Part shown: piece after piece, positions 2 to 18,730 of the stretch
Numbering within the stretch: position 1 is the stretch's first letter
Layout of the letters: every line of letters begins with the position of its first letter
Source: an archaeon
GTDB taxonomy: Archaea; Iainarchaeota; Iainarchaeia; Iainarchaeales; 1-14-0-10-31-34
Assembly (NCBI GenBank): GCA_043815885.1
Contig: JBDRIL010000038.1
Coordinates: 1 to 23,653 of the forward strand
DNA: 23,653 nucleotides
Direction: 5' to 3'
Position numbers and translations under genes: made by a program
Notes under the pieces: model-generated
Database searches by the model: none
What the model saw: the letters and a program-made list of their open reading frames with translations, nothing else
What the model was told of the DNA's origin: nothing

Positions 2-679
2 AAGACAAAAGGAGGCAATAAGGAAGTAAAGTACAAGCAATTAACTAGTATTGATTCAGTTGATGTAGCTGAACTTACTGCAAGGAGAATGGATGACTGC
101 ACTGGAGAATTCATAAAAAAGGAAATGGATATTCCGAAGACTCCGACAGAACAGAAGAATGCAAAATGCGATGCAGGAGAAATTCCTTCAGGAATTTCGG
201 GCAGTGTAGTTAATCCAAACTGCTTTGAAAAACACAGTGAATCCTATGCGGAAATAATTGAGACATATGCTAAAGCGAATAGGTTGTCTGCAATTGAGGC
301 ACTTGCAGTACTGCAACAGGAATCAAGTTGCGGGGTTCTTGCTCCAAATAATCCAATGCAGGCTTCAGGCTGCAGTAATGTAACATGTTCCTTCCAGAGA
401 GGATTTAAGGTATTGAGGGAAGCATATGATATGGCAGACTATTATAGATTGATTGGGGAAGACAAACAAGTGCTGGCTTTATACGGATACAACAGGGGAA
501 CAGGAAATGAGGAAAGAGCAATAACTTTAATGACTGAAGGGCATAGCAGAACTGATTCAATGGTAATGGCTTGCGAGGAATGGTATGCTCCTTCAAAGTG
601 CATGGAAGGACAAACAAGTTTACCCATAGATAAATGCTGTAATTCTCCTGGCTATGGAGCACAGTATCCTGAAAGGTAA
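2..679 (+). CDS. 5'-truncated Cys-rich protein with C-terminal lysozyme-like / lytic transglycosylase (SLT/CwlT-like) domain
   Basis: The frame of ORF 89..679 is open back to position 2 (KTKGGNKEVKYKQLTSIDSVDVAELTARR-M), so the true start lies upstream of the window. Motifs occur in SLT order: YAEIIETYAKANRL..ALAVLQQES (putative catalytic Glu, codon 320-322), NPMQ (GLMQ/DPMQ-like), SFQRGFKVL, LALYGYNRG (AYNxG-like), YGAQYPE. The real C-terminus may extend to 714 via a frameshift (see findings). Confidence 0.75.
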   Translation, partial: KTKGGNKEVKYKQLTSIDSVDVAELTARRMDDCTGEFIKKEMDIPKTPTEQKNAKCDAGEIPSGISGSVVNPNCFEKHSESYAEIIETYAKANRLSAIEALAVLQQESSCGVLAPNNPMQASGCSNVTCSFQRGFKVLREAYDMADYYRLIGEDKQVLALYGYNRGTGNEERAITLMTEGHSRTDSMVMACEEWYAPSKCMEGQTSLPIDKCCNSPGYGAQYPER

Positions 680-714
680 TGGGAATCATTGATAAAATTG
701 CTGAGTCCTGCTAA

Positions 715-776: not shown

Positions 777-2597
777 ATGGACAGGAAGGGTTTCACTCTT
801 TTTACTGCTTTAGTGGCTTTTGTGCTGATTGTATTGAGTGTATTGTTAGTGCATGGAATGATCAGGGCAGAGAGAGACAGGATTGACTTGATTGCAGGGA
901 TAGAGGAACAGACGACAATGCAGACTATTGCTGACATGGAGAGGAGTGATGCAATGCAGATACTGATTTATGATTTAAGGTTTATAATGGAGAGATGGTT
1001 TAATCAGCAATCTAAATGCGGTGAAAGTGAAGGAAAAGAAAAATGCACTGGAGGCATTGGGCCAGTCTGCAAATGGGAGGAAGGCGAAGAGGAAAAAGTA
1101 TTTTGTTCTTTTGATGAATTAGTGGATAATTTTTCTGTCACATATTTTGGAGGAAACGGAACGGAAAATGAGGATGCGGCATCACAGATGTCCAACTGGA
1201 TGGCTACTTCCCTAATGAATTTACTTCCAAGAGAAAAGAGAGTTGGAAGTTATGTGATTAGAATAGAGGATGATGTCAATGAAGAAACAAGTGTAACGGA
1301 TAAGTTGAGAGAGGGACTGGAAATATTGATTGAAAAGAGTGCTAATTCAGAGGAAGGGGATTTCTTTGAAGTAATTGAATGCGAGAATGGGGATCCAAAC
1401 AATTGTATCGGGACATTTTATTTGAATTTCAGGGCAAGTGAATTGACTGATAAAGAATACGAGAAACTACCGCAAATAAGTATTAGGAACACTGCTACCG
1501 GAAGAACGATAAGGCAGGCAATCCTTCCAAGAGAAAATTTCAGGGTTTACGTTCCATTAAGAATATTTAAAGCAATAGCAGAAGCAAGGGCATTGGCATT
1601 GGATTATTATGCGGAAGGAGAAGAAATTGATTGGACAGAAAATTATGGTTTGTTGAGTCCAAGGATTCATAATGAGATAGAGGAAATGAGGATTGGGATG
1701 TGTGATGCAGGAGTCTGCTATCCAAGGGAAAACCCATATGAAGAGCCTGATGAAAAAAACATTAAAGGCCACCTGTGCCCGGGGGCCCCTTTCTATAGCC
1801 CCGGTAAATGGGTGAAAATTAATTGTGCAGGAAGTGAATTATCAAAGAGGATGAAATGCGAGAATGCAGATATCTATTACGACCCACAGGAAACAGAAAG
1901 TATGAAAAGTGCACTTGATGAATTGGTTAGGAACCGGCTGGAGTTTTTGGTTAAAGAAAGCATTGGAAGGACTTTTGAGATAAAACAGGAAGACAGGTTT
2001 GAATTAAAAAAAGTTGAATTGAGCTCTACTGATATAGAAGTAACTAGATCGAAGAAAATCATAGTGGCACCTGGATCTGAAAAAACGGAATCAAAACCAA
2101 ACGACCATTCTTCATATAAGTCAAATTATTTCTTTGGGGAAGGCTCTTCAGCTTGCCCGATGGTTGATTCAGAAGCAAGGGTTGGTTTATTCTATAATTA
2201 CTCTGATAAAAATGTTTACAAGAATCCTGTTCCGAATGGAAAGCTTGAGTGTGAGGATATAACGAATGGAAATGTTTTCTCGCATTGCGCTGAAGTCAAG
2301 TCAATTGAATTCGCTGTATTCTTTACAGAAACAGATGGAAATTATGTAGTGAATAAAAAATTGCTTGAAGAGGGAGGGCCATTATATGGAATAAAGATAA
2401 AGGATAACTGGTATACTCCATTCACTGCGAGATACAATGCTCCTCTTGACCCCCAGGGGAGTTGTGCTTTAGCGAGTGATGCTTACAGAAATGATTTGCC
2501 TTGTAATTTGAGTGATTGGACCTGCGAATCAAGAACTTTTATGGAAATGGGTGGTTTCGGGAATATTGAAGAAAGCTATGGTTGTAGTGTTCCCTGA
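777..2597 (+). CDS. Large Cys-rich type IV pilin-like protein with class III (prepilin) signal peptide, 606 aa
   Basis: N-terminus MDRKG|FTLFTALVAFVLIVLSVLLV: short basic leader, KG/F prepilin-peptidase site and hydrophobic helix, followed by a long amphipathic helix. The acidic body has 18 Cys, consistent with a disulfide-bonded extracellular domain. Confidence 0.7.
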   Translation: MDRKGFTLFTALVAFVLIVLSVLLVHGMIRAERDRIDLIAGIEEQTTMQTIADMERSDAMQILIYDLRFIMERWFNQQSKCGESEGKEKCTGGIGPVCKWEEGEEEKVFCSFDELVDNFSVTYFGGNGTENEDAASQMSNWMATSLMNLLPREKRVGSYVIRIEDDVNEETSVTDKLREGLEILIEKSANSEEGDFFEVIECENGDPNNCIGTFYLNFRASELTDKEYEKLPQISIRNTATGRTIRQAILPRENFRVYVPLRIFKAIAEARALALDYYAEGEEIDWTENYGLLSPRIHNEIEEMRIGMCDAGVCYPRENPYEEPDEKNIKGHLCPGAPFYSPGKWVKINCAGSELSKRMKCENADIYYDPQETESMKSALDELVRNRLEFLVKESIGRTFEIKQEDRFELKKVELSSTDIEVTRSKKIIVAPGSEKTESKPNDHSSYKSNYFFGEGSSACPMVDSEARVGLFYNYSDKNVYKNPVPNGKLECEDITNGNVFSHCAEVKSIEFAVFFTETDGNYVVNKKLLEEGGPLYGIKIKDNWYTPFTARYNAPLDPQGSCALASDAYRNDLPCNLSDWTCESRTFMEMGGFGNIEESYGCSVP

Positions 2598-2665: not shown

Positions 2666-2717
2666 ATACATATAATTCTTTTATTGTGATTAAACATAAA
2701 TCTGGCCAGTGAATGGA

Positions 2718-5700
2718 ATGGGTGTAAAGGAATTTTATCATTCGATTGAGGACAAGTATTATGCTTTAATGGATTCATTGGACAAGAGAGGAATTCCTGT
2801 TTATAAGGCGATTGATTTCCTTGAGTCAAAGAATATTCCTTCTTTTCCTGTATTCATTTTATCAATAATAATTCTGATTGCATTAATTTATTTTGCTTTT
2901 ACTCTAAGTGGAGTCATCAGCCCAATGAATGAATTCACTTTGAGCGTAGGTGATGAATCAGGGAATGCATTGACTGGAGCAAGAGTGACTCTAACATATG
3001 ATGAAGAAACTTCCACTAAGACAACAAATGATGACGGAAAAGCAGTGTTCAGTGTTCCTGCGGGAAAGAATTTTTCGGTTATAGTGAGAAAGGAAGGATA
3101 CGCGGAAAAAGCAAAAGAGTTTTCTGCTGTAGACAAGAGTGGAATGCTTAGCCTTGCATTACTTCCATTGAACAGAATTGAAATAATGCTGTACAAGGAA
3201 GGAACCACTCAATTGATTGATGAAACAGTGACTGTATCATTTTATTGTTCTGAGGGAGACTATCTTGAAGAACGAACTACTTCTACCGGAAGAATTACTT
3301 TGGAGGGGGTTCCGTCTGATTGCGGGAGACTGATTGCAGATGTAGTTGGGGGGGATTGCATTGAAGGATGCAGTATTGACAGTTCAAAGGACACTGCATC
3401 AATTTATCTTTCAGGAAAAGAGAAAGAAGAAAAAGGAGAATTAAATGTAGAGGTAGTGAATGAATCAGGAGATGCTTTAACGGGAATTCATGTTAATTTA
3501 ATTCCATTCAATGGAAGCATCAGCGCGGAAACAAGCTGTGTTACTTATGGAAGCGGAAGCTGTACAATGGATAATATTCCTTTTGGAGATTATTATGTGA
3601 CTGCTTATGACCCGAATGAAGGCTATTCTTTCTATAATTCTTCTGTTGAAGGAGAAATCATCAGCATCAATCCTTCCAATCCAGTAAAATACTTTGAAAT
3701 TACAATGAAGAAGGATGTGCTTGGACAGATAAATGTAATAGTGATTGATGCTTCTACTGGAGAGGGAGTAGAGAATGCAGAAGTGAAATTATTGAGGGAT
3801 AATTTAAAACAGGAAACAAAGAAAACGAATGAGGAAGGTGTGGCTGTATTTAATGTCGGGACAACGCAGGAGGTTTTTTCTCTTGCAGTGAATCACCCTG
3901 ATTATTTGATTGCGGATTCAATTACTGGTGTAGGGGCGAGAGATGAAGCATTTGAGTTTAGGTTGACTCAGGCTACAGCAAACAATTCACAGAGAATTGA
4001 TGTAGAGGTGCTTGATTCAGAGAATGAACCAGTAGAGAATGTTAAAGTGTTTTTGAAGAAAGCTGATGAACCAGAAGTAATAATCGGAAAGGAAATGCTT
4101 ACTGGAATGGATGGAAGAACTTCCTTTGGGAATGTAGAGGAAGGAAGATATATTGTTTATGCTGAAAAGAACGGCTTTCCAGGAAAGAACAGTGAACCAA
4201 TTACTGTAAGGGCGAGGACTCCGGCAAAAATTGTGATTCATTTGGAGATTGGAAGAGGAACAATTGATTTAAGAGTGGTTAACGAAGAAAAGCAGGCGAT
4301 ACAAGGAGCAACAGCAAGGGTAATTGATTTATTCTCCAATAAGGAAATGAGTGAATTAAAATCAGTAACTGATTCAAGCGGTAATGCAGGAATTAATGTC
4401 AGGGCAGACAAGGTCGTGTATCTTAAGGTTAGTGCACCCAATTACGCTGATTTCACTTCTGTTCCGATTAAAATGTATGAGGGAAGCATTCCAAAAGAAA
4501 TTGTATTGGTTGAAGGAATTACAGAACTGGATATTGTATTGCAGGGATTTTATTCAAAGAGCGAGCAGGCAGAGGATTCAGGGGAAGGAATAAAGTTATC
4601 TAAAGGAAATGAATATGTTGCAAAGTTTTTGTTATTGGTTCCTGAAACAGATGCAGTGGAGACAGGAGTGCATATAAGGACTGGAGCAGAAAAGGATAAA
4701 GTAAATAACATAATGGAAAAGGATGACCTTTTTATTGAGAAGATTTATGCATCCAATGCAATGCTTATCAGGGGAACTTCCTTTAATCCTCCAAATGGTT
4801 TTGAGGTTGATTCACAGCATTTGACTTCAGGAGACAGCAAGTGGGCGAATATTGTATTCAATGAACCAGTAAAGGGAGCAATAGAGATTGAGGCAAGAAT
4901 TCAGTTAAAGGAAATAACCTCAAGCAGTTTAATGAATCTGGCTTACAGGGCATGGATTGTGACAGGAGAAGGAGTATTGCGGGAGCCATTTGATGCAGAA
5001 TTAAAGGAAGCGGAATCAACTCCGACAAAGCATTCGCTTTACGCAAAGGCAAAGTATAAGCCGTTAATGACTGGCGCTTCAAGCATGTGTACTGATTACT
5101 TCTGTTATTCCTTGAATATAACTGATTTAAGTTCTGGAATGAAGACAATGATTGCGGATGAGTTTCCTGCAGAAATAAACAATGATTACAGGATGGAGTT
5201 TTCTTTAATCAATGTAACGGAAAAGGATTTTGATAATGTAGAGTTAGAGATAAAGAATGAATTGAAAGGATTACAGCTGAAGAATTACAGTATTGAGGGA
5301 AGCCAGGGAATTGGAAAGGAAGGAAAGATTGTTGTTCCTGTTGGAAGTGTCAGTGAAGGAACAATGATTAATGGAATGATTGAATTCAATGCAAAGAAGG
5401 AAGGACCGAACAAGCTTGAATTGAGTCTGGTTTCTTCCAGTGAAGAAATGGGAAAAGAAAATGTATTCCAGAAGACTATTAAAATTGATACAAAGGCACA
5501 GGGAGAAATGAAGATTGATTTGCTTCCAAAAATACTTGTTCCGTTTATCAACAATAATTTATTGATTAGGATTAGTGACACTGATGAAAATCCATTGAGT
5601 GAGGTACTGGTTGAAGTGAGAAAGGACGGAGAGAATGTAGTCAATGGATTTACTGATGGAGAGGGAGTGTTTGCAGTAACACTGGAGGAAATGGGTCCAA

Positions 5701-8700
5701 GAACAAAGGTAAAGATTGTAGCAGAGAAGAGAGGATACAGGGAAGTAGAGTTAGAGGTTGAAGTACAGAAGGAAATACTTTTAGTTAATCCAACAGAAAT
5801 AAATGAAACATTTATTGTTTCAAAGGAATTCACTGTAAAGAGAGAAATCATTGCAAGGAATATTACAGAGATTCCACTGAATATTGCTGCAGTAGAGGTA
5901 ACAGATGCATTCAATGGAATGGTTCAGTTTACTTGGGAAGAGGATTACAGTGGAAAAGAATTGGTTGCAGTGGAAGACAATAAACTGTATCTGACTATTG
6001 GATTGACTCCAAAAGGGAAAATGGCTGAGGAAACCACTCTTCTTGAGGGAACAATAAATATTGTAGTGGAAAATGAAGAGATTGAAAAGCAGTGGGTCAG
6101 CTCGATTCCTGTAAGCATTACAATTGGTTTGGGCGGAGAGGTGGATGAAGCTGATTGTTTGATTATAGAGCCGGAAGAATGGAGAATTAGAACTGACGGA
6201 ACAAGAGGCGCAAGGAATTTTACTTTAAAGAATATCTGTACAGTGGAAGGAAAGCCTGTTTCTTTGAGGAATTTAGAGGCAAGGATTTTGTGGGAGGGAG
6301 ACAATGAAGTTGCAGGATTTGAACTCACCCCAAAAATGGCTGAAGGAAACAAAATAGAGTTAACCAATAAATGGAAGATAGCAGTTCCACTGGTTAAGCC
6401 AACACTGGAGGATGAGGGAGAGGTAATTGAATTCAGTTTTACTCCTGATGAGATTAATTCGGCTTCTTCTAAGATGAGAATACAATTAAAGGCAACGCAT
6501 TTAACTGAAACAGGAAAACAGGCAATTCAGACAGAGGTAAATACAGAGATACAGATAAGCAAATTGATTGAATGCATTGAAGTAATTGAAAGAGGTCCTT
6601 TAACAATACAGTTAGGGGCATTCTCTCAGGGATATGGAATGTTCCAAGGCCAATTTGGAAATACGGGAAGTCCGTTCGGACAGTATCCAAACTATTACAA
6701 TCAATCCCAGAACTATTATCCTTATGGTTATGGAGGGCAATACTATCAGGGAAGCACTTACGGAAGCTATCCTTATTCTTCAGATGTAATGTATCCTTCC
6801 ACGAATGAATGGATGAACAGGAGCTGGCCTTCAGCTTACTACAACCAGCCTTATGTGGATAACTCAATGATTAATCCTGGATCTATGAATCAATGGCAGC
6901 CAGGAACAGAGTCAAAAACCTCATTTATAGTGCAGAATAACTGCCAGTCAGATGTAGAGATAAGCATTGAGCCAGATCCTAACCTGTCTTCTTCTGATAC
7001 AAGCTTTGAACTTGAACCAGGAAATGAAAAAAAGGTAGAAGTAATGTCTACTTATTTCCCTGGATCTTATCCAGTGTATGTCAGGGCAAAGTTAAAGGAC
7101 TCACAGCAAAAGAAAACAGATATTAAACAAGTAAATGTATTGGTGGAGAATGAATCCCAGAAGAATTACAGGGACTGCATTTACCTGGATAAAAGGACGT
7201 TCCAATTCAATGACTTCATTCAGAAGCCAGTAACAGGAAAAATAATTAATTCTTGTTATGGAATGGGGGTAGTATTGGATTATCAGTCGCTTTCATTGGG
7301 GGACTACCAGGCAGACTATTATGGAAATTCTTACAGGGACCAAAGCACTGTTGACATGACAAAAAATGCTGAATACCAGCCAGGACTGATTAATGATTTC
7401 AGGATACTGGAATTAATCAATAAGCCTGGCCCGAACGGAAAAGTCATTCAGGAATTAAGGTTTGAAATAATCAAAGAAATTGAGAGCAGTTACAGGAGTG
7501 ATATTCCAAAACTCCCAGATGCAAAAGATCCAATAACAGAGATAGGTTTATGGAGATTAAAGCTGACTGGCGCTTACTATACTGTAAGGGCCCCAGAAAT
7601 ACTTGTAGTGAATTTCTATAACAGGTATGGGCAGAGACAAAGCATTCCATTCGATATAATAATTGAGGATTTATGGGCTGCAGTGCCATTGGTTGCAGGA
7701 GAAGTTGAATGGGGAAGCGAGAAAGAAATCTTCCAGGAATGCATTAACAGTGAATCACTGAATGTAAGCAATTACAGGATAGGAAAGACAATGAATGAAT
7801 GTCTGAAGGAGGACGAGGACTTCTTTGAAAAAGGGGGAACTCAGTACCTGCACAGCAATGAAGGAAAGGACAGGGTATTGCAGATAGGAGAAAATTTATG
7901 CGGGCAGGTTGATTCACTGTCACTGGAAGTGAATAGTGTTGCAAAAGAGGAATGGAATGGAATAAAGTTATTGTTTTCGTTATATGACAGCAAACACAAT
8001 GTACAGATGTATGTTGATAAAAGCAACTGGGATGGAACAGAAACAAAGATTGATTATAAATTACCTGCAAGACTTACAAGAATGATTCACGGATACAGCC
8101 AGAGAGTATACATTCCGGTAAAGGTATGCATTGCAGGAGAAAAAAAGCCTGAAGGGCTGACAGATAAAGAACTTGAATGCTATAAAGAATTAAGAAGATT
8201 AGAGAAAGACATTGAAGAACTTAAAAAAGAAATAGAGAGACTGAAAGAATGTGTTGGTTTGGAAAAAGGAAGCAAAGAAAAAATAATTGAAGAAATAGAT
8301 AAGAGCTATACAACAGAGGAAGTTAAATGCGAGACAGGAACAACCGGAGAAGGGGCAAAGAAAAAATACGGGTTTGATAGATTACTGTTTGACTGGGAGA
8401 CTGGAAAAGACCATATAGAGATTCACACATGTGATGATGCTTCAGAGTATTATGATGATGCTGGAAAGATTTTCTGTGATGCAACACAGCAAAGCATTGC
8501 ATTGAATGAAAAGGCAAAGGAAATTGAGAGAGTATTGAAAAGCACTAAAAGCGTCTGTTTGAAAGTGACAGAAACAGGTGTAACGATTTGTGAAGACACA
8601 ACAACAGAGAACCTCCCAGCACACTTCATTAAGCAGGTAAAGGTAAAAGATAAGGTAAGTGGAGAAAACCTAGTGTTCTTTATTGGAAAAGATGGAAGCA

Positions 8701-10349
8701 TTCTTGAAAAAGAAAAATTGGATAAGGCAGGTTATTCTTTAACAGAAGATATAAAGAATCAATTCAAGGATGGAATTCCTTTGGATTTAGTATTAGTAAT
8801 TGATTTAATGGAATCACTGAATAATAAACTCGAAGAAAAGACTGAAATTAAAAACATTATTGCACAGGTAGAGAGAAAGGAATTCAGTTCAACTGAGTTA
8901 GACACTCTAAAGCACATTGTTGGGGAAGAAATGGACGTTTATGAGGATTACTATATAATGACATTCAATGAATTTGATAAATTCCATGAAAAGCTTGATA
9001 ATGCAACTCCTATCGAAATGGACTGCAGTACCAAGACAGTTAAAGAGAACTGCTGTACAAGGGTGGCTGGAAAAATCAATAGCTGCAAGATTGAGAGCAT
9101 TAATGGAACAACTCAATTCGATGTAAGCGCTGCATTCATGCAAAAATTATTCAATAGTATTTCATTCAGAGTGGGACAGAGGAATATTGAATTGAGCAAA
9201 GAAGAGAAAGAAAATGTATTGGAGAAAGGAAAGTCAGTAATAATTGAAGTAACAGATTTATTGAAATGGTATCACCAATACATTGAAACTGATTCATTCT
9301 TCATTCAGGATAAATTCAGCGAAGATTTCAGGAAAGACTTTGAAAAAGAGTATTCCGGTATAACTGTTGGAGACTTCGGGAAATGGGAGTTTGCTCCAGA
9401 AAGCGTTCTTGCAGGAAAGTACAAGGTATTTATTGTATATAACTGGAAGGATGAAAAAGTTAAGGTTAAATTCACTCCAATAGAAACTAATTTGAACAAT
9501 ATCGATAAAGAGAATAAAACGTCCTATGCAAGCAATCCGTTCTTTAGGATGCCGTTTGATGGGGATGTAGGAAAAACCGATGGAAAACTGCAAAGAGATG
9601 GTTACGGAGTGGGATATGGAGAGAAGGCAGCCCTTAACTTCTATTTAAAAGACGGCCAAGACCCAGTCAATTCAAAGGTAACAACAGGAAATCCAAAGGT
9701 AACCTATAATACTTCTTACAGCAAGGAATTCGGGGACACGAGAAATGGAATGATACTGGATGTAGGCAGCGGAACAATTGAATTCACTCCTTCAATGCCA
9801 ATTGTACTGGAATTGAATCTGGATAAGACAAGCACTAAGAGAGGAGTGTTCTATTCATTATCTCTTGGAGGAAAAGAGTTAGGAAAGGATATTGAGAAGG
9901 ATTTGAGTTATCTCTTTGAATGGAATGGATGCGGAAAGACTGCAGTGAAAGACAATAAAACAAGCCAGTCTGTATTCAAGTCCTCTGAATGCACTTCAAC
10001 TGTTGAAAGGTTTGGATTGGTTTTGGATGCAGGAGAAAGCACTAGTTATGCAGCAATATCCTTTGTTCCATTAGAGAATACTTACAAGATAACGGCAAAT
10101 TATTGTGAGAATGGGGTAGAGCAATTCAATTTATTTAAGGGATTCGAGAAAGAAAAGAGTGAGAAATCTTCAATTAAATCATCTGCAGGAGAACTCACGA
10201 GCGGTGATGCAAGTAACGAAAACATGAATAAATTAATTGAGAGAATTGGGGGCGGAGAGGTTTGCATTAATCCAACTGACAGTGGAAAGGGAATGGAGTT
10301 TGTCTGGAACAAGCAAGAGATAATGAATTTGTCTAAGGTTTGCAGTTAA
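2718..10349 (+). CDS. Giant membrane-anchored surface protein 1 (~2543 aa), carboxypeptidase-regulatory-like/Ig-like beta-sandwich repeats
   Basis: Long ORF (track start GTG 2709; ATG 2718 preferred because MGVKEFY matches the paralog starts MGLKE). N-terminal motif, then TM helix (FPVFILSIIILIALIYFAFTL), then repeated V-D-x-x-G-x-x-[LV]-x-[GN]-A-x-V...T-x-x-x-G-x-A-x-F units typical of CarboxypepD_reg/Cna-B-like folds. Also a Y/Q/G/N-rich insert, a coiled coil and a C-terminal block shared with protein 2. Confidence 0.85.
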   Translation: MGVKEFYHSIEDKYYALMDSLDKRGIPVYKAIDFLESKNIPSFPVFILSIIILIALIYFAFTLSGVISPMNEFTLSVGDESGNALTGARVTLTYDEETSTKTTNDDGKAVFSVPAGKNFSVIVRKEGYAEKAKEFSAVDKSGMLSLALLPLNRIEIMLYKEGTTQLIDETVTVSFYCSEGDYLEERTTSTGRITLEGVPSDCGRLIADVVGGDCIEGCSIDSSKDTASIYLSGKEKEEKGELNVEVVNESGDALTGIHVNLIPFNGSISAETSCVTYGSGSCTMDNIPFGDYYVTAYDPNEGYSFYNSSVEGEIISINPSNPVKYFEITMKKDVLGQINVIVIDASTGEGVENAEVKLLRDNLKQETKKTNEEGVAVFNVGTTQEVFSLAVNHPDYLIADSITGVGARDEAFEFRLTQATANNSQRIDVEVLDSENEPVENVKVFLKKADEPEVIIGKEMLTGMDGRTSFGNVEEGRYIVYAEKNGFPGKNSEPITVRARTPAKIVIHLEIGRGTIDLRVVNEEKQAIQGATARVIDLFSNKEMSELKSVTDSSGNAGINVRADKVVYLKVSAPNYADFTSVPIKMYEGSIPKEIVLVEGITELDIVLQGFYSKSEQAEDSGEGIKLSKGNEYVAKFLLLVPETDAVETGVHIRTGAEKDKVNNIMEKDDLFIEKIYASNAMLIRGTSFNPPNGFEVDSQHLTSGDSKWANIVFNEPVKGAIEIEARIQLKEITSSSLMNLAYRAWIVTGEGVLREPFDAELKEAESTPTKHSLYAKAKYKPLMTGASSMCTDYFCYSLNITDLSSGMKTMIADEFPAEINNDYRMEFSLINVTEKDFDNVELEIKNELKGLQLKNYSIEGSQGIGKEGKIVVPVGSVSEGTMINGMIEFNAKKEGPNKLELSLVSSSEEMGKENVFQKTIKIDTKAQGEMKIDLLPKILVPFINNNLLIRISDTDENPLSEVLVEVRKDGENVVNGFTDGEGVFAVTLEEMGPRTKVKIVAEKRGYREVELEVEVQKEILLVNPTEINETFIVSKEFTVKREIIARNITEIPLNIAAVEVTDAFNGMVQFTWEEDYSGKELVAVEDNKLYLTIGLTPKGKMAEETTLLEGTINIVVENEEIEKQWVSSIPVSITIGLGGEVDEADCLIIEPEEWRIRTDGTRGARNFTLKNICTVEGKPVSLRNLEARILWEGDNEVAGFELTPKMAEGNKIELTNKWKIAVPLVKPTLEDEGEVIEFSFTPDEINSASSKMRIQLKATHLTETGKQAIQTEVNTEIQISKLIECIEVIERGPLTIQLGAFSQGYGMFQGQFGNTGSPFGQYPNYYNQSQNYYPYGYGGQYYQGSTYGSYPYSSDVMYPSTNEWMNRSWPSAYYNQPYVDNSMINPGSMNQWQPGTESKTSFIVQNNCQSDVEISIEPDPNLSSSDTSFELEPGNEKKVEVMSTYFPGSYPVYVRAKLKDSQQKKTDIKQVNVLVENESQKNYRDCIYLDKRTFQFNDFIQKPVTGKIINSCYGMGVVLDYQSLSLGDYQADYYGNSYRDQSTVDMTKNAEYQPGLINDFRILELINKPGPNGKVIQELRFEIIKEIESSYRSDIPKLPDAKDPITEIGLWRLKLTGAYYTVRAPEILVVNFYNRYGQRQSIPFDIIIEDLWAAVPLVAGEVEWGSEKEIFQECINSESLNVSNYRIGKTMNECLKEDEDFFEKGGTQYLHSNEGKDRVLQIGENLCGQVDSLSLEVNSVAKEEWNGIKLLFSLYDSKHNVQMYVDKSNWDGTETKIDYKLPARLTRMIHGYSQRVYIPVKVCIAGEKKPEGLTDKELECYKELRRLEKDIEELKKEIERLKECVGLEKGSKEKIIEEIDKSYTTEEVKCETGTTGEGAKKKYGFDRLLFDWETGKDHIEIHTCDDASEYYDDAGKIFCDATQQSIALNEKAKEIERVLKSTKSVCLKVTETGVTICEDTTTENLPAHFIKQVKVKDKVSGENLVFFIGKDGSILEKEKLDKAGYSLTEDIKNQFKDGIPLDLVLVIDLMESLNNKLEEKTEIKNIIAQVERKEFSSTELDTLKHIVGEEMDVYEDYYIMTFNEFDKFHEKLDNATPIEMDCSTKTVKENCCTRVAGKINSCKIESINGTTQFDVSAAFMQKLFNSISFRVGQRNIELSKEEKENVLEKGKSVIIEVTDLLKWYHQYIETDSFFIQDKFSEDFRKDFEKEYSGITVGDFGKWEFAPESVLAGKYKVFIVYNWKDEKVKVKFTPIETNLNNIDKENKTSYASNPFFRMPFDGDVGKTDGKLQRDGYGVGYGEKAALNFYLKDGQDPVNSKVTTGNPKVTYNTSYSKEFGDTRNGMILDVGSGTIEFTPSMPIVLELNLDKTSTKRGVFYSLSLGGKELGKDIEKDLSYLFEWNGCGKTAVKDNKTSQSVFKSSECTSTVERFGLVLDAGESTSYAAISFVPLENTYKITANYCENGVEQFNLFKGFEKEKSEKSSIKSSAGELTSGDASNENMNKLIERIGGGEVCINPTDSGKGMEFVWNKQEIMNLSKVCS

Positions 10350-10366: not shown

Positions 10367-13300
10367 ATGGGGCTGAAAGAAGTTTATTATTCCCTGGAGG
10401 AAAAATACTATAATTTATTGGATAAAATAAATAAGGTCATTCCATTATACAAGATTGTTGATCCAATCGATAAAATATTTCCTTCTTTTATATTATGTAT
10501 TATAGTAGTATTAATCCTGATTCTTGTGGCTGGAGTAATGCTTGCTCCGGGATTCATGGTGAAAGAGGAATTTGATTTAGCTTTTAAGGTAACAGATGAA
10601 GAAGGAAGAGGTTTAGGCGGAAGCAGCATAACAGTAGAATATGAGGGAACAAAAAAAACACTTGAAGCGGATTTGTTTGGAAAAACTGATGTAGTGAAGG
10701 TAACAGAAGGGACAATGGTTTCATTTAAGGCAATAAAGGATGGATATGAAAGCTTTGAGGATTCAATTGAAGTAAAAAAGAATTATACAAAAGAGATTTC
10801 ATTAAAGGAATTGATTATTGCATTCCAGGAAACAGAGAGAAACATTGAATTCTATGATTCAGTAAATACAAGTGAGTTGGTCAGGGAAAGGCTTTACCTT
10901 TATTTTTCCTGTGAGAATTATGAGGCAACCCCTCCTGATTCAATTGATGTAAGTGATGGAAGGACAATAGTGTCTGAGCCATCAGAGTGTGAAGGACTGA
11001 GTGTAACAGTAAAGAGTTCTTCTTACAGGCAGGTTAATTCATTTCCACTGGATTACACTATAAATGAAATATATCTGGAGAGATTGGGTAGCGGAGAAGG
11101 AGAAATTACAATTGAGACTTACTACAATGATGCTCCCATAGATAATATCTGGGTTGGATTGTATGAGGACACTGAATTAGGGCCAGTGTATGAGGGATAC
11201 ACATATGGCGGGGAAGTGAGTTTTGCTGTTGTGCCACAGCTTTACTTCATTAAGGCATATGATGAACTGAATGAATTTGAGCCTTCTTCAATTACTGCTT
11301 CAATTGAAGCAAATGAGGAAAGGACTGTAAGGATAAGTTTGGAGAAAAATGTTCCGGAAATTGCTTCTGGATTAATCAGAATCCAGGTAGTGGATTCAGC
11401 TAATTCAAAGAGATTAATTGGAGGGGCAAAGGTTACTTTAAGGAAGGAAGAGGAAGAGATTGCAACACTTGAGACTTCAATTGATGAAAATGCAATAATT
11501 GAATTCAATGTGGATGATGAAGAGGCAAGCTATAATGCAATAATTGACCATGAAGATTATTTGGTTAAAAGGGAAACTGATTTGAGAGTGAGTGATGCAG
11601 TTCATACAGTTAAGCTGGAGAGATTTGACGGAGAGAATGGAGGAGAATTAAAGGTAAGGGCAATAGACCAGGAAGGAGTTCCTGTTAGAAATGCAAGGGT
11701 TGCATTGTATGATGATAAAAAGAATTTAATTCAGGCAGTGGAAGAGACAACTGACTTGAATGGAGAGGCAGAATTCACTCGAGTACAGAACGGGCATTAC
11801 ATGGCTTTTGCTTATAAGGGAACAGTGAGCGGATGGAGTGATGCAAGCTACTTCAATATGCGGACAGGAGAATTAACTGAATTGGTTGTAGTAATGCAGA
11901 TTCCTGACGGAACGCTCAAGATAAAGGTAGTGGACTTGGATGATGAACCCATAAGGTTTGCAAATATTTCTTTATTTGATGCAAGCAATGAAGAACTAGT
12001 TATTAATACCCCGACTGATTCAAATGGAGTACTGAATTATACTGAAAGAGCAGACAAGAGTGTTTACTTTAAGGTGGAAAAGGAAGGATTTGCTTCATTC
12101 CATTCAATTGTATACCAATTGCTTCCAAATACTGTAGAAGAAATAGAGGTAGTAATGGAAAAAGCAATTGTTTCAGGAGAGGCAACAGTAGAATTTGTCG
12201 GGGTTTACAAGGAAGACGAATTTGTTTCAGGCAAAGAAGAAGGGCTTCCTGGAGCGCTTTCCTCTGGAGAGGAATACATTGCATTACTGTATCTGAGGGT
12301 TCCGGAGAAAAAGAATTACAGTGAAGCAGGAATTCATTTTAGGCTGGGAAAAGATTTATTCATGGAAAACGATTTAATGTTTATAAAGGAAGTAATGGAC
12401 GGAGAAGCAACAGTAAAAAAATATACGAGGTTCAGTGGAAATGACGCAAAGGATGACTTAAAGAGCCTGAGTGAAGAGTACGGGAAATGGACTAATATTG
12501 TTTGGAGGGCTCCAGAAGCAGGAATACATGAAGTAAGGGTATTGTTTAAGGTAAAGGAAAATGTTGAGAAAGGAAAGGAACTGGCATTCAATTACAGGAG
12601 CTGGGCAAGAAAAGGAAACAAGGCATACAGGGATCCGGAAGATGTTGCAATGGAGGAAGAGCTTTATGCAGCAGTAAAAAAGAAAATATATACTACTGGA
12701 TTTACTACTCTCTGTTCTGATGAATTCTGTTTCACTGCATCAATTCTGGACAAGAAGGAGGATTTAGTTGAGGGAGTGGTTGATTCCTATACCGCAAAAA
12801 TCTGGCAGGAATACCAGCTTGAATTCGATATAGTGAATAACAGCAAGGACTTCATTCATTATCCTGATTCATATGCAAAGATAAGGAATAACAATGAAGC
12901 AATTACTTTTACGCATTACTCTATAAAGAATGCGGATTCAAGGCCAATTGTTGATGAACCGGATTCCTCTTACATAAAGAAAGTTGATTTAGGAGAATTT
13001 TCTCCTAACAGGCATGTAGTTGGAAAGATTGATTTCAGGATAGTGAAGGATGCAGGAGGAACAATAAATATCACTATTGTTTCAGGAAAGGAAATGAAGT
13101 TCTCAAGAGATATTACTATTGAAGTGGAAGCTCCAAAAGAATTTGCTCTTTCCTTTGAACCAGATCCAATCGCGGCAGGAGTAAGCAATAAGGTATTGTT
13201 TAAGGTAAAGGAATTAGTGGAGGAAAAAGAAGTAGAGAAGGCATTGATTACGCTTAAAGACAAATTCAGTGATGTAATTGTTGGGCCTGTATCCACTGAC

Positions 13301-16300
13301 AGGGAGGGAGAAGCAGTAATTGAGATTCCTGCACAGGCTCCGGAAAGTGTATTGTATGCAGTAGTGGAGAAAGAGGAATTCAAGACATTAAAGCAAGAGA
13401 TAAGGATTGACGGAAACTTTGTGGAAGTAAAGCCAAAGAAGTTAGGGATTACGCTTAATACAGTTGAGAAAGCAACTTCAATGGATTCATTTACAATAGA
13501 GAACCTGCTTTACTTTGATTTAAAGCTTGAATCAATTGAAGTTCAGGGCGACCTAAAACATTTGATTGACGAGGATGCAATGAATGATTATCTCTATACT
13601 AATTTCAAGGGAATAACTGTTTCGGCAAAGGAAGAAAGAGAAATTCAATTGAGAAGCATTCTTTCAATGGAGGGAAGGAACTGGACGCAGAGAGAGGACT
13701 TGAAAGGAGAACTGCTGATGGTTTTCTCCAATGGAGAGGCTTCCTGGACATATAAATTGCCTTTAACCTACAGCATTGGAATAGGAAAGGAAGTTGATAA
13801 TCCAACCTGTTTCAGTGTTTCAATGAATGAATGGAAGACCTCCACAGAAGGAAGCACAGAGGAAGTGAGCTTTGAAATAGAGAATAACTGTACAGTGAAT
13901 GGCTCTCCCTTGGAATTAAAGGATTTGGAGGCAATGGTTGAATGGAAGAGCAATAAAGTGGGAGCATTTACTCTTACAGTGGAAGATGTTTCAGCTGAAT
14001 TAAGGTCTACTTACTACAAGAGTGTAAGGGACAATGTAGAGAATAAGAGACACAGGGCAATTCTTTCCTTTACTCCAAACGGAGGAGTGAATGGAACAGG
14101 AATTGCAACAATAAAGATTCGCGCAAGCAATGTACTGGAAGGAAAGAACCAGCTGCTGGAAGATGCAATTGAAACAGAAATAATGATAGTCAATTTACTG
14201 GACTGCATTAAGTTCTCCAAAGACGAATTAAGAATGCCTCAGGGAGGAAGTGATTCATTTAAAGTGGAGACGCTTGGATGCGGGGGAAACATAACCTTTT
14301 CCTTTGAATCAGATTTGCATTTAAGCACTAAAGAAATTGAATTAGGAGAAGAAGAGGAAAGCTCGGATATAATGGTTAGTGCAGTGGACGTGGTTCCAGG
14401 GCAATACAAGATTGTTGCAACAATGCAGGGAGAAGCATTAAAGACAAAGAGAAAAGTGAAAAACATTTATGCATTAGTTGAAGGAACAGGATGTGTAAGG
14501 CTGAGCAAATATGAATTCGATGTATACAATGATCCAGCTGATCCTTATGATGGATATGACACAGTGAAAATCATTAATGACTGCTACAAAAAAGAGTTCC
14601 CGGCAAAAGTGAAAATAAAGGACTGGAAGAAGGCAATGGAAGACGCATTAATGCCCACACTCTATGCCTTCCTTGGGGGAGGATTAATGAATGTAGTGGG
14701 AGACAAGATTCCAATTATCGGCCCATACCTTAACACAATCAAAGGACTCTTTGGAATCACAGGCGGGGAAGAGAAAAAACCTGAAACAAAAGAAAAAGAG
14801 AAAAGCAAATTGGAGAAACAAAAAGAAGACTTAGAAAAACAATTAGAGGAAGCGACTAAAGCAAAAAAAGACTCAGAAGAAATTAAAGAACTAGAAGAAA
14901 AAATATCAGAACTAAATAAAGAAATTAAAAAAATATTAGAAGATGAAAAAGAAGTAGTGACACCGCCCGAATCCCCTAAAACCCCAACAGAAGAACCCAA
15001 AAAGGAAGAATCTGAAACTCCTGCTCCTGCGCCCCCAGAAACTTCTGAAACTCCTAACCCTTCTGAAGGAACGCCTTCAAACGGAGAAATAGGGGACTTC
15101 CCAGCACCTTCAGAAGACGTATATGCTGAAGAAAAAGAAGGCATTCCAACAACTGGTTATTTCCTTGGAGGGATTCCAATTATAGGGGAATTCTTTACTA
15201 AGGGAAACATAATTACTACTGCATTGACTTTTGTTGGAACTACAATCTATAATTACATGAATCAGGATGACGTGCAATTGATGTATCTGGAGAGGGATTT
15301 AGGGGTAAAGGATTATGGATTGTTTGAGGAAAGGAAACAGTTAATTGAAGGGAAATTGATTGAAACTCCGGAGGAAAGGATTGGGTTTACGCCGAAAGTG
15401 GATGAAATTGATTTTGATGAAGATGTTTACACTGAATTCAAGGAAGGGACAACTGAATTAAGGGAAGTGTATGAAGTAGTATTCACTAATGAGGATGGAT
15501 GGAGGCAGAAGGATGCAATGAGTCCATTGTATGCATTATTCAATGTAGTAACGGAAAAGTATGAGTATGAGGAAGAATACAAGGACAAGATTCCTGAGAA
15601 ACTGGAGGAAATAACCCCAAGGGATGAAATGGAAAATGAATTCCATCTGCAATTTAATTCATTTAAGACGGACGAAAATATAGATAGCCGTCCATTAGGA
15701 AATTGTGTTATTGGTTCAAAGGTAGGAGAGACAGGGGAACAGGCAGAACTTCCAAAAGTGAAATTATTATGGAGATGGCAGGAATTTATGGGGGGAAAGG
15801 ATTCCAAAGGAAATGCAAATATTTATCCATGTAGTGAGGGAGGCTATTACTGTGATGCAACGCAATTCACTATAGAATTAATGGAGAGGATAAATGAAGC
15901 GCAAAAGATAATTGAGGACCTTGAATTAGAGTGCCCTTATCCAAGGGCTGAATGCAAGGAATTAAGCACTTCGTTAATAAATGAAATAATTAAGTATACT
16001 GAAGAAAAGAATGAAACTGAATTAAACAAGGAAGACAAGGAGAGGTTAACTAATTTACTTGGATTCAATGCTTACCTGATTAGGGACGGGTATTCTGCTG
16101 ACTTCCAGAAGGACTTCCATGACTATGCAGCAAATATTGCTTTCTTCCAGACTCCATTATTCTATCACAATCCTGATGATGTTAATAGTTCTCTTGGAGC
16201 AATATTCTCTAATCCAGACTTATTTGAATTCGATTACTTCAGGGAATCATCAAACCAGGCAATAAATGGCCCGGGAATGTACAGCATTACAATAGACATT

Positions 16301-17308
16301 ACTTATGATGATGATTCATTCCTGTTGTTTGAGAAGGAAAAGCTTACTGCAAGCATTAAGGCAAGCATGAGCAAACTGAAGGCACCAAAACCGGATTCGC
16401 CATTGTATTACATTCCGTTCGATGGAGAGATAGGCTTATTGAGTGATAACGGAAGAGTGGGATATGGAACGAATTACGAGACAACTCTTGGAGACCCAAT
16501 AAATGTTAATGACGCAATCGGAGGACAGGGGCAAATAAGAACAATAAATATTGCTAATGCAAACGCAATACACAATGTAAAGGCAACAACAAAGGATGAT
16601 TTAAAGACATTGAATGTGGATGAAAGAGGAACAGTAATGAAGTTTGAAAGGACTGGAACAGAAACACAGCTGCTGTATTCTCCTTCAGATGCAACTCCGG
16701 TTATTTTAGGAATAGATGATGCCACATCCAAAAATTTATTCCTGTTTTATTCAATCGAGATAGCGAATGAACCCCAGAGAAATGTCGGAAGTTATATGAG
16801 CAGATGGACTGGAAAAGGAGACAATTGTGTTGACTTCCACGGAAAGAAAATGATTGCATATGCAGAAGAACCAGACAGGCATGCACTGAGCTCTGAAGCG
16901 AAAAAGGAATCAGTAATGGATGACAGACTCAGACCATATTCATATGGATTTTATTGGAGTTCCCCTACAAGAGCAGGAGAGGTATTCTTTGAGACAGTGT
17001 TCTTTACTCCAAAGGAAAGGGATTCAATCTTAAGGATAACAGCAAAATCAGGAGGGACAGGCGTTAAATTTTATACTCCCACTACTTCCGGAGAACAGGT
17101 TACATTGAGCGGAGTAATGATTGAAAGCAGGAACAGGATTGATTCAGTGCAAAAGGTATTTGATTTGGTTAGAGAGGAAAAGATGTGCGTAATGGGAAAT
17201 GACAGCAGAAGCGTTGAATTCTTCTGGAATCCAAAAGTTGGATTGGATGAATTGGAAGATAGTTCAGCAGTAAAGGCACTGAAAATAGATGAAAGCTGTA
17301 TCAGGTAG
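10367..17308 (+). CDS. Giant membrane-anchored surface protein 2 (2313 aa), paralog of 2718..10349
   Basis: Starts 17 bp after the previous stop, with an SD-like GGAG. Same N-terminal motif + TM, same beta-sandwich repeats and shared motifs (RADKxVY, GIHFRxG, KWxNIxW, CDATQ, PFDGxxG, EFxWN). A central coiled coil and Pro/Glu-rich linker are flanked by Gly-rich hydrophobic segments. Confidence 0.88.
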   Translation: MGLKEVYYSLEEKYYNLLDKINKVIPLYKIVDPIDKIFPSFILCIIVVLILILVAGVMLAPGFMVKEEFDLAFKVTDEEGRGLGGSSITVEYEGTKKTLEADLFGKTDVVKVTEGTMVSFKAIKDGYESFEDSIEVKKNYTKEISLKELIIAFQETERNIEFYDSVNTSELVRERLYLYFSCENYEATPPDSIDVSDGRTIVSEPSECEGLSVTVKSSSYRQVNSFPLDYTINEIYLERLGSGEGEITIETYYNDAPIDNIWVGLYEDTELGPVYEGYTYGGEVSFAVVPQLYFIKAYDELNEFEPSSITASIEANEERTVRISLEKNVPEIASGLIRIQVVDSANSKRLIGGAKVTLRKEEEEIATLETSIDENAIIEFNVDDEEASYNAIIDHEDYLVKRETDLRVSDAVHTVKLERFDGENGGELKVRAIDQEGVPVRNARVALYDDKKNLIQAVEETTDLNGEAEFTRVQNGHYMAFAYKGTVSGWSDASYFNMRTGELTELVVVMQIPDGTLKIKVVDLDDEPIRFANISLFDASNEELVINTPTDSNGVLNYTERADKSVYFKVEKEGFASFHSIVYQLLPNTVEEIEVVMEKAIVSGEATVEFVGVYKEDEFVSGKEEGLPGALSSGEEYIALLYLRVPEKKNYSEAGIHFRLGKDLFMENDLMFIKEVMDGEATVKKYTRFSGNDAKDDLKSLSEEYGKWTNIVWRAPEAGIHEVRVLFKVKENVEKGKELAFNYRSWARKGNKAYRDPEDVAMEEELYAAVKKKIYTTGFTTLCSDEFCFTASILDKKEDLVEGVVDSYTAKIWQEYQLEFDIVNNSKDFIHYPDSYAKIRNNNEAITFTHYSIKNADSRPIVDEPDSSYIKKVDLGEFSPNRHVVGKIDFRIVKDAGGTINITIVSGKEMKFSRDITIEVEAPKEFALSFEPDPIAAGVSNKVLFKVKELVEEKEVEKALITLKDKFSDVIVGPVSTDREGEAVIEIPAQAPESVLYAVVEKEEFKTLKQEIRIDGNFVEVKPKKLGITLNTVEKATSMDSFTIENLLYFDLKLESIEVQGDLKHLIDEDAMNDYLYTNFKGITVSAKEEREIQLRSILSMEGRNWTQREDLKGELLMVFSNGEASWTYKLPLTYSIGIGKEVDNPTCFSVSMNEWKTSTEGSTEEVSFEIENNCTVNGSPLELKDLEAMVEWKSNKVGAFTLTVEDVSAELRSTYYKSVRDNVENKRHRAILSFTPNGGVNGTGIATIKIRASNVLEGKNQLLEDAIETEIMIVNLLDCIKFSKDELRMPQGGSDSFKVETLGCGGNITFSFESDLHLSTKEIELGEEEESSDIMVSAVDVVPGQYKIVATMQGEALKTKRKVKNIYALVEGTGCVRLSKYEFDVYNDPADPYDGYDTVKIINDCYKKEFPAKVKIKDWKKAMEDALMPTLYAFLGGGLMNVVGDKIPIIGPYLNTIKGLFGITGGEEKKPETKEKEKSKLEKQKEDLEKQLEEATKAKKDSEEIKELEEKISELNKEIKKILEDEKEVVTPPESPKTPTEEPKKEESETPAPAPPETSETPNPSEGTPSNGEIGDFPAPSEDVYAEEKEGIPTTGYFLGGIPIIGEFFTKGNIITTALTFVGTTIYNYMNQDDVQLMYLERDLGVKDYGLFEERKQLIEGKLIETPEERIGFTPKVDEIDFDEDVYTEFKEGTTELREVYEVVFTNEDGWRQKDAMSPLYALFNVVTEKYEYEEEYKDKIPEKLEEITPRDEMENEFHLQFNSFKTDENIDSRPLGNCVIGSKVGETGEQAELPKVKLLWRWQEFMGGKDSKGNANIYPCSEGGYYCDATQFTIELMERINEAQKIIEDLELECPYPRAECKELSTSLINEIIKYTEEKNETELNKEDKERLTNLLGFNAYLIRDGYSADFQKDFHDYAANIAFFQTPLFYHNPDDVNSSLGAIFSNPDLFEFDYFRESSNQAINGPGMYSITIDITYDDDSFLLFEKEKLTASIKASMSKLKAPKPDSPLYYIPFDGEIGLLSDNGRVGYGTNYETTLGDPINVNDAIGGQGQIRTINIANANAIHNVKATTKDDLKTLNVDERGTVMKFERTGTETQLLYSPSDATPVILGIDDATSKNLFLFYSIEIANEPQRNVGSYMSRWTGKGDNCVDFHGKKMIAYAEEPDRHALSSEAKKESVMDDRLRPYSYGFYWSSPTRAGEVFFETVFFTPKERDSILRITAKSGGTGVKFYTPTTSGEQVTLSGVMIESRNRIDSVQKVFDLVREEKMCVMGNDSRSVEFFWNPKVGLDELEDSSAVKALKIDESCIR

Positions 17309-17470
17309 AGAATATTATATGTGACATCCTCCCACGCCTAAAGGCGTAGGCTTCCGTGGTCGACAACTGAAACATTTTTAGGAAGCCTTTTTTTCACTGC
17401 CACGGTTAAGGGCATTGCCACATTGCCCGCTTCACCAAACATATAGCTTGATGAAAAAGTTTTTGCAAGA
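17301..17470 (-). ncRNA. Predicted TnpB omegaRNA (reRNA); guide begins 5'-AUAUAAUAUUCUCUACCUGA
   Basis: Inferred from the known TnpB architecture: the scaffold overlaps the tnpB 3' end and right end, and the guide is the flank beyond TCAC (17320 downward). The 5' boundary and guide length are approximate. Confidence 0.6.
17309..17320 (+). repeat. 12-bp direct repeat copy 1 (AGAATATTATAT)
   Basis: Exact match to 18670-18681. It fills the whole gap between the protein 2 stop codon and the IS right end. Confidence 0.9.
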
Positions 17471-18698: not shown

Positions 18699-18730
18699 GA
18701 ATCATACGAAGTGAAAGGAAGGAATAATTG

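Follow-up and report, generated by a model that had tools for sequence, protein, structure and literature searches.

A divergent GH23 lysozyme-like domain at the C-terminal end of a predicted giant surface protein from a small DPANN archaeon

The stretch of DNA analysed here (the window) comprises 23,653 nucleotides and is the whole of contig JBDRIL010000038.1, referred to below as C38, of the archaeal assembly GCA_043815885.1. It begins inside an open reading frame (ORF) whose product carries a cysteine-rich domain related to the lysozymes and lytic transglycosylases of family GH23. Judged by sequence and predicted structure, this domain is probably intact and forms the tip of a membrane-anchored DPANN surface protein of about 2,695 amino acids, where it would cleave bacterial peptidoglycan on contact. 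Direct support exists for the homology, for the fold, for the conservation of the catalytic motif and for an archaeal genome in whose assembly genes for murein synthesis are lacking. From these we infer that the tip is most likely a muralytic enzyme for bacterial walls, the purpose of which may be attachment, breaching or feeding.

The ORF is open at the 5' end of the window, and the following elements were located in it:

2..679, forward strand: 3' end of the giant gene, made up of its last 225 codons and the stop codon
200..676, forward strand: cysteine-rich, putatively catalytic GH23 lysozyme-like domain (SLT/CwlT-type), from the family profile, the alignment, profile matches to the Protein Data Bank (PDB), the AlphaFold2 model and VIA-align superpositions
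320..325, forward strand: Glu107-Ser108, the presumed catalytic Glu-Ser (motif I), from the alignment, the E-S of goose lysozymes and its location at a helix end in the model
350..361, forward strand: N-P-M-Q, a variant of the G-(I/L)-M-Q motif II of the family, from the alignment
485..499, forward strand: G-Y-N-R-G, motif III (A-Y-N-x-G in goose lysozymes), from the alignment, N-R-G being invariant in the family
572..676, forward strand: C-terminal cysteine-rich extension (A-C...C...C-C..P-G-Y-G-A-Q-Y-P-E), conserved in the subfamily and located past the Pfam SLT match

The designations motif II (G-L-M-Q) and motif III (A-Y-N-x-G) are those of the literature on family-1 lytic transglycosylases. 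The profile of the family matches the window at 200-685. In the 225-residue fragment, Q-E-S-S-C occupies residues 106-110 (nucleotides 317-331), and the carboxy-terminus, C-C-N-S-P-G-Y-G-A-Q-Y-P-E-R, ends at nucleotide 676. Eight cysteines, predicted to pair as four disulfides, are present in the last 167 residues (4.8%), versus 1.15% in the inferred whole protein. The original prediction, made from the sequence alone, had placed a peptidoglycan-hydrolase-like domain at 230..679, with E-S, (N)PMQ and GYNxG motifs, a catalytic glutamate encoded at 320-322 and a cysteine-rich context. The three motifs are found at the positions it gave, Glu107 is encoded by exactly that codon and is invariant in 23 of 23 domains, and the 167-residue domain, with its eight cysteines, is indeed cysteine-rich. 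The lysozyme-like domain itself is real, but position 230 falls inside it, and the ORF is the tail of a gene.

Homologues were collected with phmmer from 1.84 billion representative proteins at E ≤ 1e-3. This gave 24 non-self proteins, the best at E = 6.3e-9, of which 23 are genuine; P0010 was rejected as a low-complexity false hit. A word-indexed search at similar length returned the query alone and, with the profile and longer proteins, three proteins, while a genome scan with the homologue P0009 returned its own archaeal metagenome-assembled genome (MAG) and two irrelevant repeat matches. The domain alignment contains the window sequence and 22 homologues, leaving out P0010 and P0025, which lacks the N-terminal half. 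Invariant across the 23 domains are the glutamate (E49 in domain numbering), C52, N-R-G, M129, C133, C155 and G159, and the serine that follows the glutamate (S50) is present in 21 of 22. The last three invariant residues belong to the C-terminal extension, in which C142, G161, Y164 and P165 are also near-invariant. Agreement among the other 22 sequences reaches 90% or more in 24 columns, and the window copy retains 21 of these, which argues against decay of the domain; its three departures are a glycine replaced by asparagine before M-Q, an isoleucine replaced by phenylalanine and a phenylalanine replaced by tyrosine.

Pfam SLT (PF01464) is matched at E ≤ 0.01 by 11 of the 24 homologues, by six of them above the cut-off and by five of those six on the aligned domain. 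When the profile of the 23 domains was compared with the PDB, 30 distinct sequences were matched at E ≤ 1, and all 30 are of the GH23 type: goose-type lysozymes, lytic transglycosylases (MltC, MltF, Slt70 and MltE) and CwlT-like hydrolases. The best matches are the cod g-type lysozyme (PDB entry 3gxk, E = 4.1e-7) and PDB entry 3wyh (E = 2.5e-6). The E-S, G-L-M-Q and Y-N-x-G motifs of the family align onto those of goose lysozyme.

AlphaFold2, provided with the alignment, produced a mostly helical model of the domain with a predicted local distance difference test score (pLDDT) of 83.3 and a predicted template modelling score (pTM) of 0.80. In this model, the presumed catalytic glutamate is located at the C-terminal end of a helix formed by residues 39-50. 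The top ranks of a Foldseek search of the PDB are all GH23 proteins, despite weak E-values. Superposition with VIA-align, run on the list of Foldseek candidates, gave these scores:

4hpe (C. difficile Tn916-like Orf17): Z 12.5, root mean square deviation 2.6 Å, 131 residues aligned
4fdy (S. aureus CwlT-like): Z 12.0
MltF: Z 11.4
LtgA: Z 10.8
MltC: Z 10.7
Slt: Z 9.9
MltE: Z 9.8
goose lysozymes: Z 9.6

Overall, Z ranges from 9.4 to 11.4 for MltF, LtgA, MltC, Slt, MltE and the g-type lysozymes; as the model is mostly helical, a Z of about 12 counts as good evidence but would not be decisive by itself. The lysozyme fold that had been anticipated is borne out by the superpositions on the CwlT-like entries 4hpe and 4fdy. 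On sequence and model, the SLT/CwlT call is right, the domain being a divergent relative within GH23 that also has, outside the Pfam model, a conserved cysteine-rich segment at its C-terminal end.

The remainder of the protein is encoded, to all appearances, on another contig of the assembly, C43. Bases 1-141 of the window and the final 141 bases of C43 (43332-43472) match without a difference, the break lying inside the giant gene, and the first 31 bases of the window occur in no other contig of the assembly. Overlaps of exactly this length presumably arise at branches of the graph when a de Bruijn assembler runs with 141 as its largest k. The frame at the end of C43 has 2,516 open codons from a GTG at C43:35923 (C43:35923-43472); it shares 46 identical amino acids with the window ORF and stays open across the overlap. 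If C43 and C38 are adjacent, this suggests a joined protein of 2,695 amino acids. Beyond window position 1 the DNA does continue upstream, as contigs from two public groundwater runs reach 258 and 137 bases further, although what lies there is not proven by these contigs. The contigs recovered from three groundwater runs are short and of low depth, none covering window positions 436-696, and no RNA is listed among the public runs that hold the sequence. The joined protein can be aligned end to end with P0023 (46% identity, residues 1-2072) and P0002 (30%, residues 6-2101), and its tail aligns separately to both at 26-27%. The k-sized overlap, the upstream continuation and the end-to-end alignment with orthologs thus all support the join. 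The full-length orthologs measure 2,631 (P0023) and 2,723 amino acids. P0023, labelled Ca. Diapherotrites archaeon, is encoded on a 192-kb contig of G018, a 99%-complete genome of the same family, where the flanks are conserved.

Near its amino-terminus, the joined protein contains a strongly hydrophobic segment (residues 37-79, Kyte-Doolittle 3.0), the putative membrane anchor. After it come a long body, with cysteines in pairs and a CarboxypepD_reg module, and a glycine-rich hydrophobic stretch near residues 2022-2074 that is also present in both orthologs. A linker of about 340 residues precedes the tail; it is poorly conserved, contains no cysteines and gives no BLAST alignment between the orthologs. 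An extracellular location of the tip, which its enrichment in cysteines also favours, would be the simplest reading of this arrangement. A three-pass topology with a cytoplasmic loop of residues 2075-2412 was considered but not adopted: at the threshold used, the second hydrophobic segment is present in this protein only and not in the two orthologs. Between the same-family orthologs, the stalk (residues 1-2072) is 46% identical and the GH23 tail (residues 2409-2695) 26%. This difference would fit a weapon-like tip that evolves fast, a tip that has been replaced, or relaxed constraint. In the mechanism we propose, the domain would be the C-terminal tip of a surface protein anchored in the membrane by its amino-terminus, and would cut the glycan strands of bacterial peptidoglycan, made up of N-acetylmuramic acid (MurNAc) and N-acetylglucosamine (GlcNAc), on contact. 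The general acid would be a glutamate, here Glu107, just as it is in goose lysozyme and Slt70, and the bacterial cell would be held by the long Ig-like/CarboxypepD_reg stalk and the pilus-like machinery nearby. The sequence is compatible with a hydrolytic (lysozyme) and with a 1,6-anhydro (transglycosylase) product, and does not separate the two.

As to the substrate, 11 of the 23 genuine homologues contain a second peptidoglycan-specific module at E ≤ 0.01, nine of these 11 above the Pfam cut-off. The modules concerned are Amidase_3, Amidase_2 (twice), Glucosaminidase, NlpC/P60 (three times, once weakly), M23, M15_4, VanY (just under the cut-off) and LysM. These partners are the strongest pointer to bacterial peptidoglycan as the substrate, because their targets are MurNAc-L-Ala or peptide stems with D-amino acids, found in no polymer but bacterial murein. 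Elsewhere in the same genome, three further candidate enzymes are encoded:

C22:8890-10978: signal-peptide SLT protein with canonical E-S, G-I-M-Q and A-Y-N-A-G motifs (28.9 bits, above the cut-off), at least 696 amino acids, cut by the contig end
C14:8804-9538: second SLT-like secreted protein, a weak match (19.4 bits), 244 amino acids
C11:954-1781: membrane-anchored M23 peptidase (71.9 bits)

The M23 family was matched in 10 bacterial and in 0 archaeal control genomes. The additional SLT-like proteins and the M23 peptidase suggest that this archaeon possesses several murein-directed enzymes; Amidase_2 and NlpC/P60 were not found in its genome.

Two alternatives are that the contig is a mis-binned bacterial one, for example from the candidate phyla radiation (CPR), and that the enzyme remodels a murein-like wall of the archaeon itself. 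The assembly is a metagenome bin of 1.16 Mb in 62 contigs (91.7% complete, 2.06% estimated contamination), and no universal marker genes are located on the window itself, as a mis-binned contig would allow. Against this, the genome contains a full archaeal small-subunit ribosomal RNA gene (1396 bits) next to an archaeal large-subunit gene, and Ribosomal_S8e, which among the control genomes was matched in the four archaeal ones only. At E ≤ 1e-10, a PAC2 gene on the overlapping contig C43 has 298 homologues. Organism labels, as assigned by the depositors, are present for 15 of the 120 that were listed, and all 15 are archaeal (eight Candidatus Diapherotrites archaeon and seven 'archaeon', with none from bacteria, Pacearchaeota or Woesearchaeota). 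The ortholog with the same flanks on the 192-kb contig of G018 argues in the same direction, as do the organism labels of the subfamily, carried by six of 23 proteins and in all six cases archaeal (Woesearchaeota three times, Micrarchaeota, Diapherotrites and 'uncultured archaeon'); with 17 of the 23 unlabelled, restriction of the subfamily to archaea is not established. The bacterial or CPR origin that the original prediction had named as its possible undoing therefore fails: the genome is archaeal, groups with Diapherotrites-labelled MAGs and belongs to a small DPANN archaeon. Remodelling of an own wall was likewise rejected, since the only Mur-ligase-like gene of the genome (the sole Mur_ligase_M match) is FolC (TIGR01499, 400.9 bits; pMurE 60.6 bits versus a cut-off of 600) and no SEDS gene was found in the 91.7%-complete genome. 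The archaeon appears to be without a murein or pseudomurein pathway, absence from a bin of about 92% completeness being no proof. Taken together, mis-binning or an own wall is largely refuted and would surprise us greatly. The suggestion of a foreign substrate holds, and a bacterial wall is the most likely target because the archaeon appears to make no murein itself.

Several observations do weigh against an active enzyme at the tip of a giant protein. The picture of the whole protein rests on the 141-base overlap of two contigs, with no contig spanning them; the further hydrophobic segments at residues 2022-2074 and 2413-2436 leave the topology of the tip in doubt, and no peptidoglycan-binding module was found in the giant protein. 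For the window copy, Pfam SLT matches residues 123-175 at E = 0.0065 with 16.5 bits, below the gathering threshold of 21.3, and Pfam Lysozyme_like gives no match even at E ≤ 10. By Pfam's own rule the domain is therefore a divergent relative of the SLT family and not a member; the SLT and Lysozyme_like matches proposed as a check were thus sub-threshold and absent, respectively, and it is the family profile that leads to GH23 structures, and to these only. NCBIfam likewise has no match for the window copy alone, a single-sequence phmmer search of the PDB found nothing, and the best PDB match of Foldseek had E = 0.016, with none at or below 0.001. In the maximum-likelihood tree of the 23 domains, in which the two other giants pair at 88/91 support, the window branch is the longest (2.12 versus a median of 0.66), and its length keeps the tree from placing it. 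In motif II, M and Q are kept, the glycine of all 22 other sequences is asparagine in the window copy only, and the loop that follows M-Q is shortened; to go by sequence, loss of the glycine may mean reduced or altered activity. The long branch, the glycine replacement, the shortened loop and the sub-threshold Pfam score would also suit a domain that binds glycan and no longer cuts it, an adhesion module that sits on the stalk end and grips peptidoglycan or some other polymer of GlcNAc. We consider this unlikely, as Glu-Ser, M-Q, Y-N-R-G and all conserved cysteines are kept, and inactive lysozyme-like modules are usually without the glutamate. An active enzyme might, on the other hand, be directed not at murein but at a different glycan of the beta-1,4 GlcNAc type (chitin or chito-oligomers, for example), or at a wall or surface-layer glycan of an archaeal host. 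Going by their PDB titles, some GH23 relatives among the structural matches bind chito-oligomers (chitopentaose in the case of MltE, chitotetraose in those of MltD and the phi6 lysin), and DPANN archaea with known hosts live, in the account given in PMC8204110, on other archaea. The partners found within the subfamily are nevertheless specific for murein peptides (MurNAc-L-Ala amidases, D-Ala-D-Ala carboxypeptidase-type M15/VanY, M23 and NlpC/P60), and a substrate other than murein seems to us quite unlikely. Moreover, the links in pseudomurein are beta-1,3, MurNAc is absent from it, and it is not a known substrate of any GH23 enzyme. Contact-dependent cleavage of bacterial peptidoglycan by the GH23 tip remains the reading we favour.

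The genes that surround the GH23 giant on the window and on C43 are as follows:

777..2597, forward strand: 606-residue cysteine-rich protein with a pilin-like N-terminus (M-D-R-K-G-F-T-L-F-T-A-L-V-A-F...)
2709..10349, forward strand: giant surface protein of 2,546 residues, paralogous (CarboxypepD_reg, Big_1 and SpaA modules)
10367..17308, forward strand: giant surface protein of 2,313 residues
17338..18576, reverse strand: TnpB-type gene (IS605 OrfB / Cas12f1-like TNB, 86.5 bits) between giant genes
18728..23653, forward strand: gene for a giant surface protein of more than 1,642 residues, running off the window end
L005:9849-10373 (C43), just upstream of the GH23 giant gene: exosortase/archaeosortase-family protein of 174 residues (TIGR04178, 46.8 bits)
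L023:12506-14311 (C43): type II/IV secretion ATPase with an N-terminal 4Fe-4S ferredoxin-type domain (T2SSE, 122 bits)

The 606-residue protein shows a weak N-terminal match to the minor pilin ComGF (E = 0.0043, 17.3 bits, cut-off 80) and matches no Pfam family; its ortholog is located directly downstream of the GH23 giant gene in G018 too. The three downstream giants are built of CarboxypepD_reg, Big_1 and SpaA-type modules, and at least the first of them (2709-10349) shares its N-terminal anchor region with the GH23 giant. In G018, ORFs of 2,545, 2,206 and more than 1,619 amino acids follow in matching order, and the order of ORF sizes is the same on both flanks. At the site of the TnpB gene, the giant ORFs of G018 lie about 90 bases apart with no ORF of at least 100 amino acids between them; the TnpB gene looks like a recent insertion and not a part of the system. 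The GC skew flips at the TnpB gene (17338-18576). On C43, two T2SSF platform genes come after the ATPase gene, a second ATPase/platform pair is present at L005:3933-8676, and small unassigned ORFs are also located upstream. No obvious C-terminal sorting signal was found on the giant proteins examined. From its gene content, the locus is a conserved surface-apparatus island, the parts of which may work together.

The same GH23 domain occurs on amidase, M23, M15 and NlpC/P60 enzymes, and at the tip of the giants it diverges much faster than the stalk (26% versus 46%). For these reasons it is conceivable, and is put forward here tentatively as one of the less probable possibilities, that the domain is an exchangeable 'warhead', so far with archaeal labels only. 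It would then be part of a contact-dependent apparatus, along with the pilin-like partner, the archaeosortase-like gene and type-IV-pilus-like genes, that serves to attach to and breach bacteria. If this is true, bacteria, and not archaea, would be the hosts or prey of this Diapherotrites-type archaeon. The hosts of most DPANN archaea are unknown, and an exported enzyme for a polymer made by bacteria only would be a rare genomic clue to life on, or predation of, bacteria. A compact domain of 167 residues, for which E107Q would be a clear control, would also bring the long-standing hypothesis of peptidoglycan cleavage within easy reach of an assay; as an idea, it has been published.

The domain is distributed sparsely. 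In the phylum of the window, eight of 215 genomes, this one included, match the profile at E ≤ 1e-3, five of them strongly (E < 1e-20), and in the phylum of another carrier (G215) one of 61 genomes matches at E ≤ 1e-10. Giant DPANN proteins with murein transglycosylase domains have been published before. Castelle et al. (2021) describe, in the text of PMC8204110, the family fam00969 of such proteins, propose that they bind or degrade bacterial walls, report them from Pacearchaeota or Woesearchaeota and 'mostly absent in other lineages', and cite Rinke (2013) and Castelle (2015) for three earlier genomes. In the text of Vigneron et al. (2022; PMC9723730), a 'large lytic murein transglycosylase' (GH23) is reported from Woesearchaeota and predation is proposed; further texts mention the same kind of protein in three ocean DPANN MAGs (PMC10936187) and repeat the idea for Pacearchaeota (PMC11537232). 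In a literature search that stopped short of supplements, no published description of a giant GH23 protein in Diapherotrites/Iainarchaeota was found. The present protein adds a Diapherotrites-labelled lineage to the pair of DPANN groups that these articles name.

Compared with the fam00969 type, our protein is alike in coming from a small-genome DPANN archaeon, in its GH23/SLT-type domain and in the proposed binding or degradation of walls. Proteins of that type reach about 3,000 amino acids, and ours, dependent on the contig join, has 2,695 with an N-terminal anchor; the difference is that this genome goes with Diapherotrites-labelled MAGs and not with Pacearchaeota or Woesearchaeota. The two archaeal M23 hydrolases with which Strock et al. 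(2025) report the killing of a bacterium (PMC12352652) are similar in being archaeal enzymes for a bacterial-only polymer with a patchy distribution. They differ in being haloarchaeal M23 peptidases with PG_binding_1, and the main text of that article contains no mention of SLT, GH23 or lytic transglycosylases. With the goose lysozymes and family-1 lytic transglycosylases (Slt70, MltC, MltE and MltF; CAZy GH23, PF01464), the domain shares the order of the E-S, (G)-x-M-Q (here with asparagine for the glycine) and Y-N-x-G motifs, the fold and the glutamate at a helix end, while identity is about 13-20% and the window copy falls below the Pfam threshold. The CwlT-type hydrolases, 4hpe (C. difficile CTn1-Orf17) and 4fdy (S. 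aureus SAV0400), are the best structural matches and are also reached by the profile (E = 2.8e-4 and 4.2e-4, respectively), and several subfamily members pair the domain with NlpC/P60 as well. Our giant protein differs from these in being without NlpC/P60 and in having flanks without conjugation genes; here the domain is located C-terminally on a giant stalk and has an extra conserved cysteine-rich C-terminal segment.

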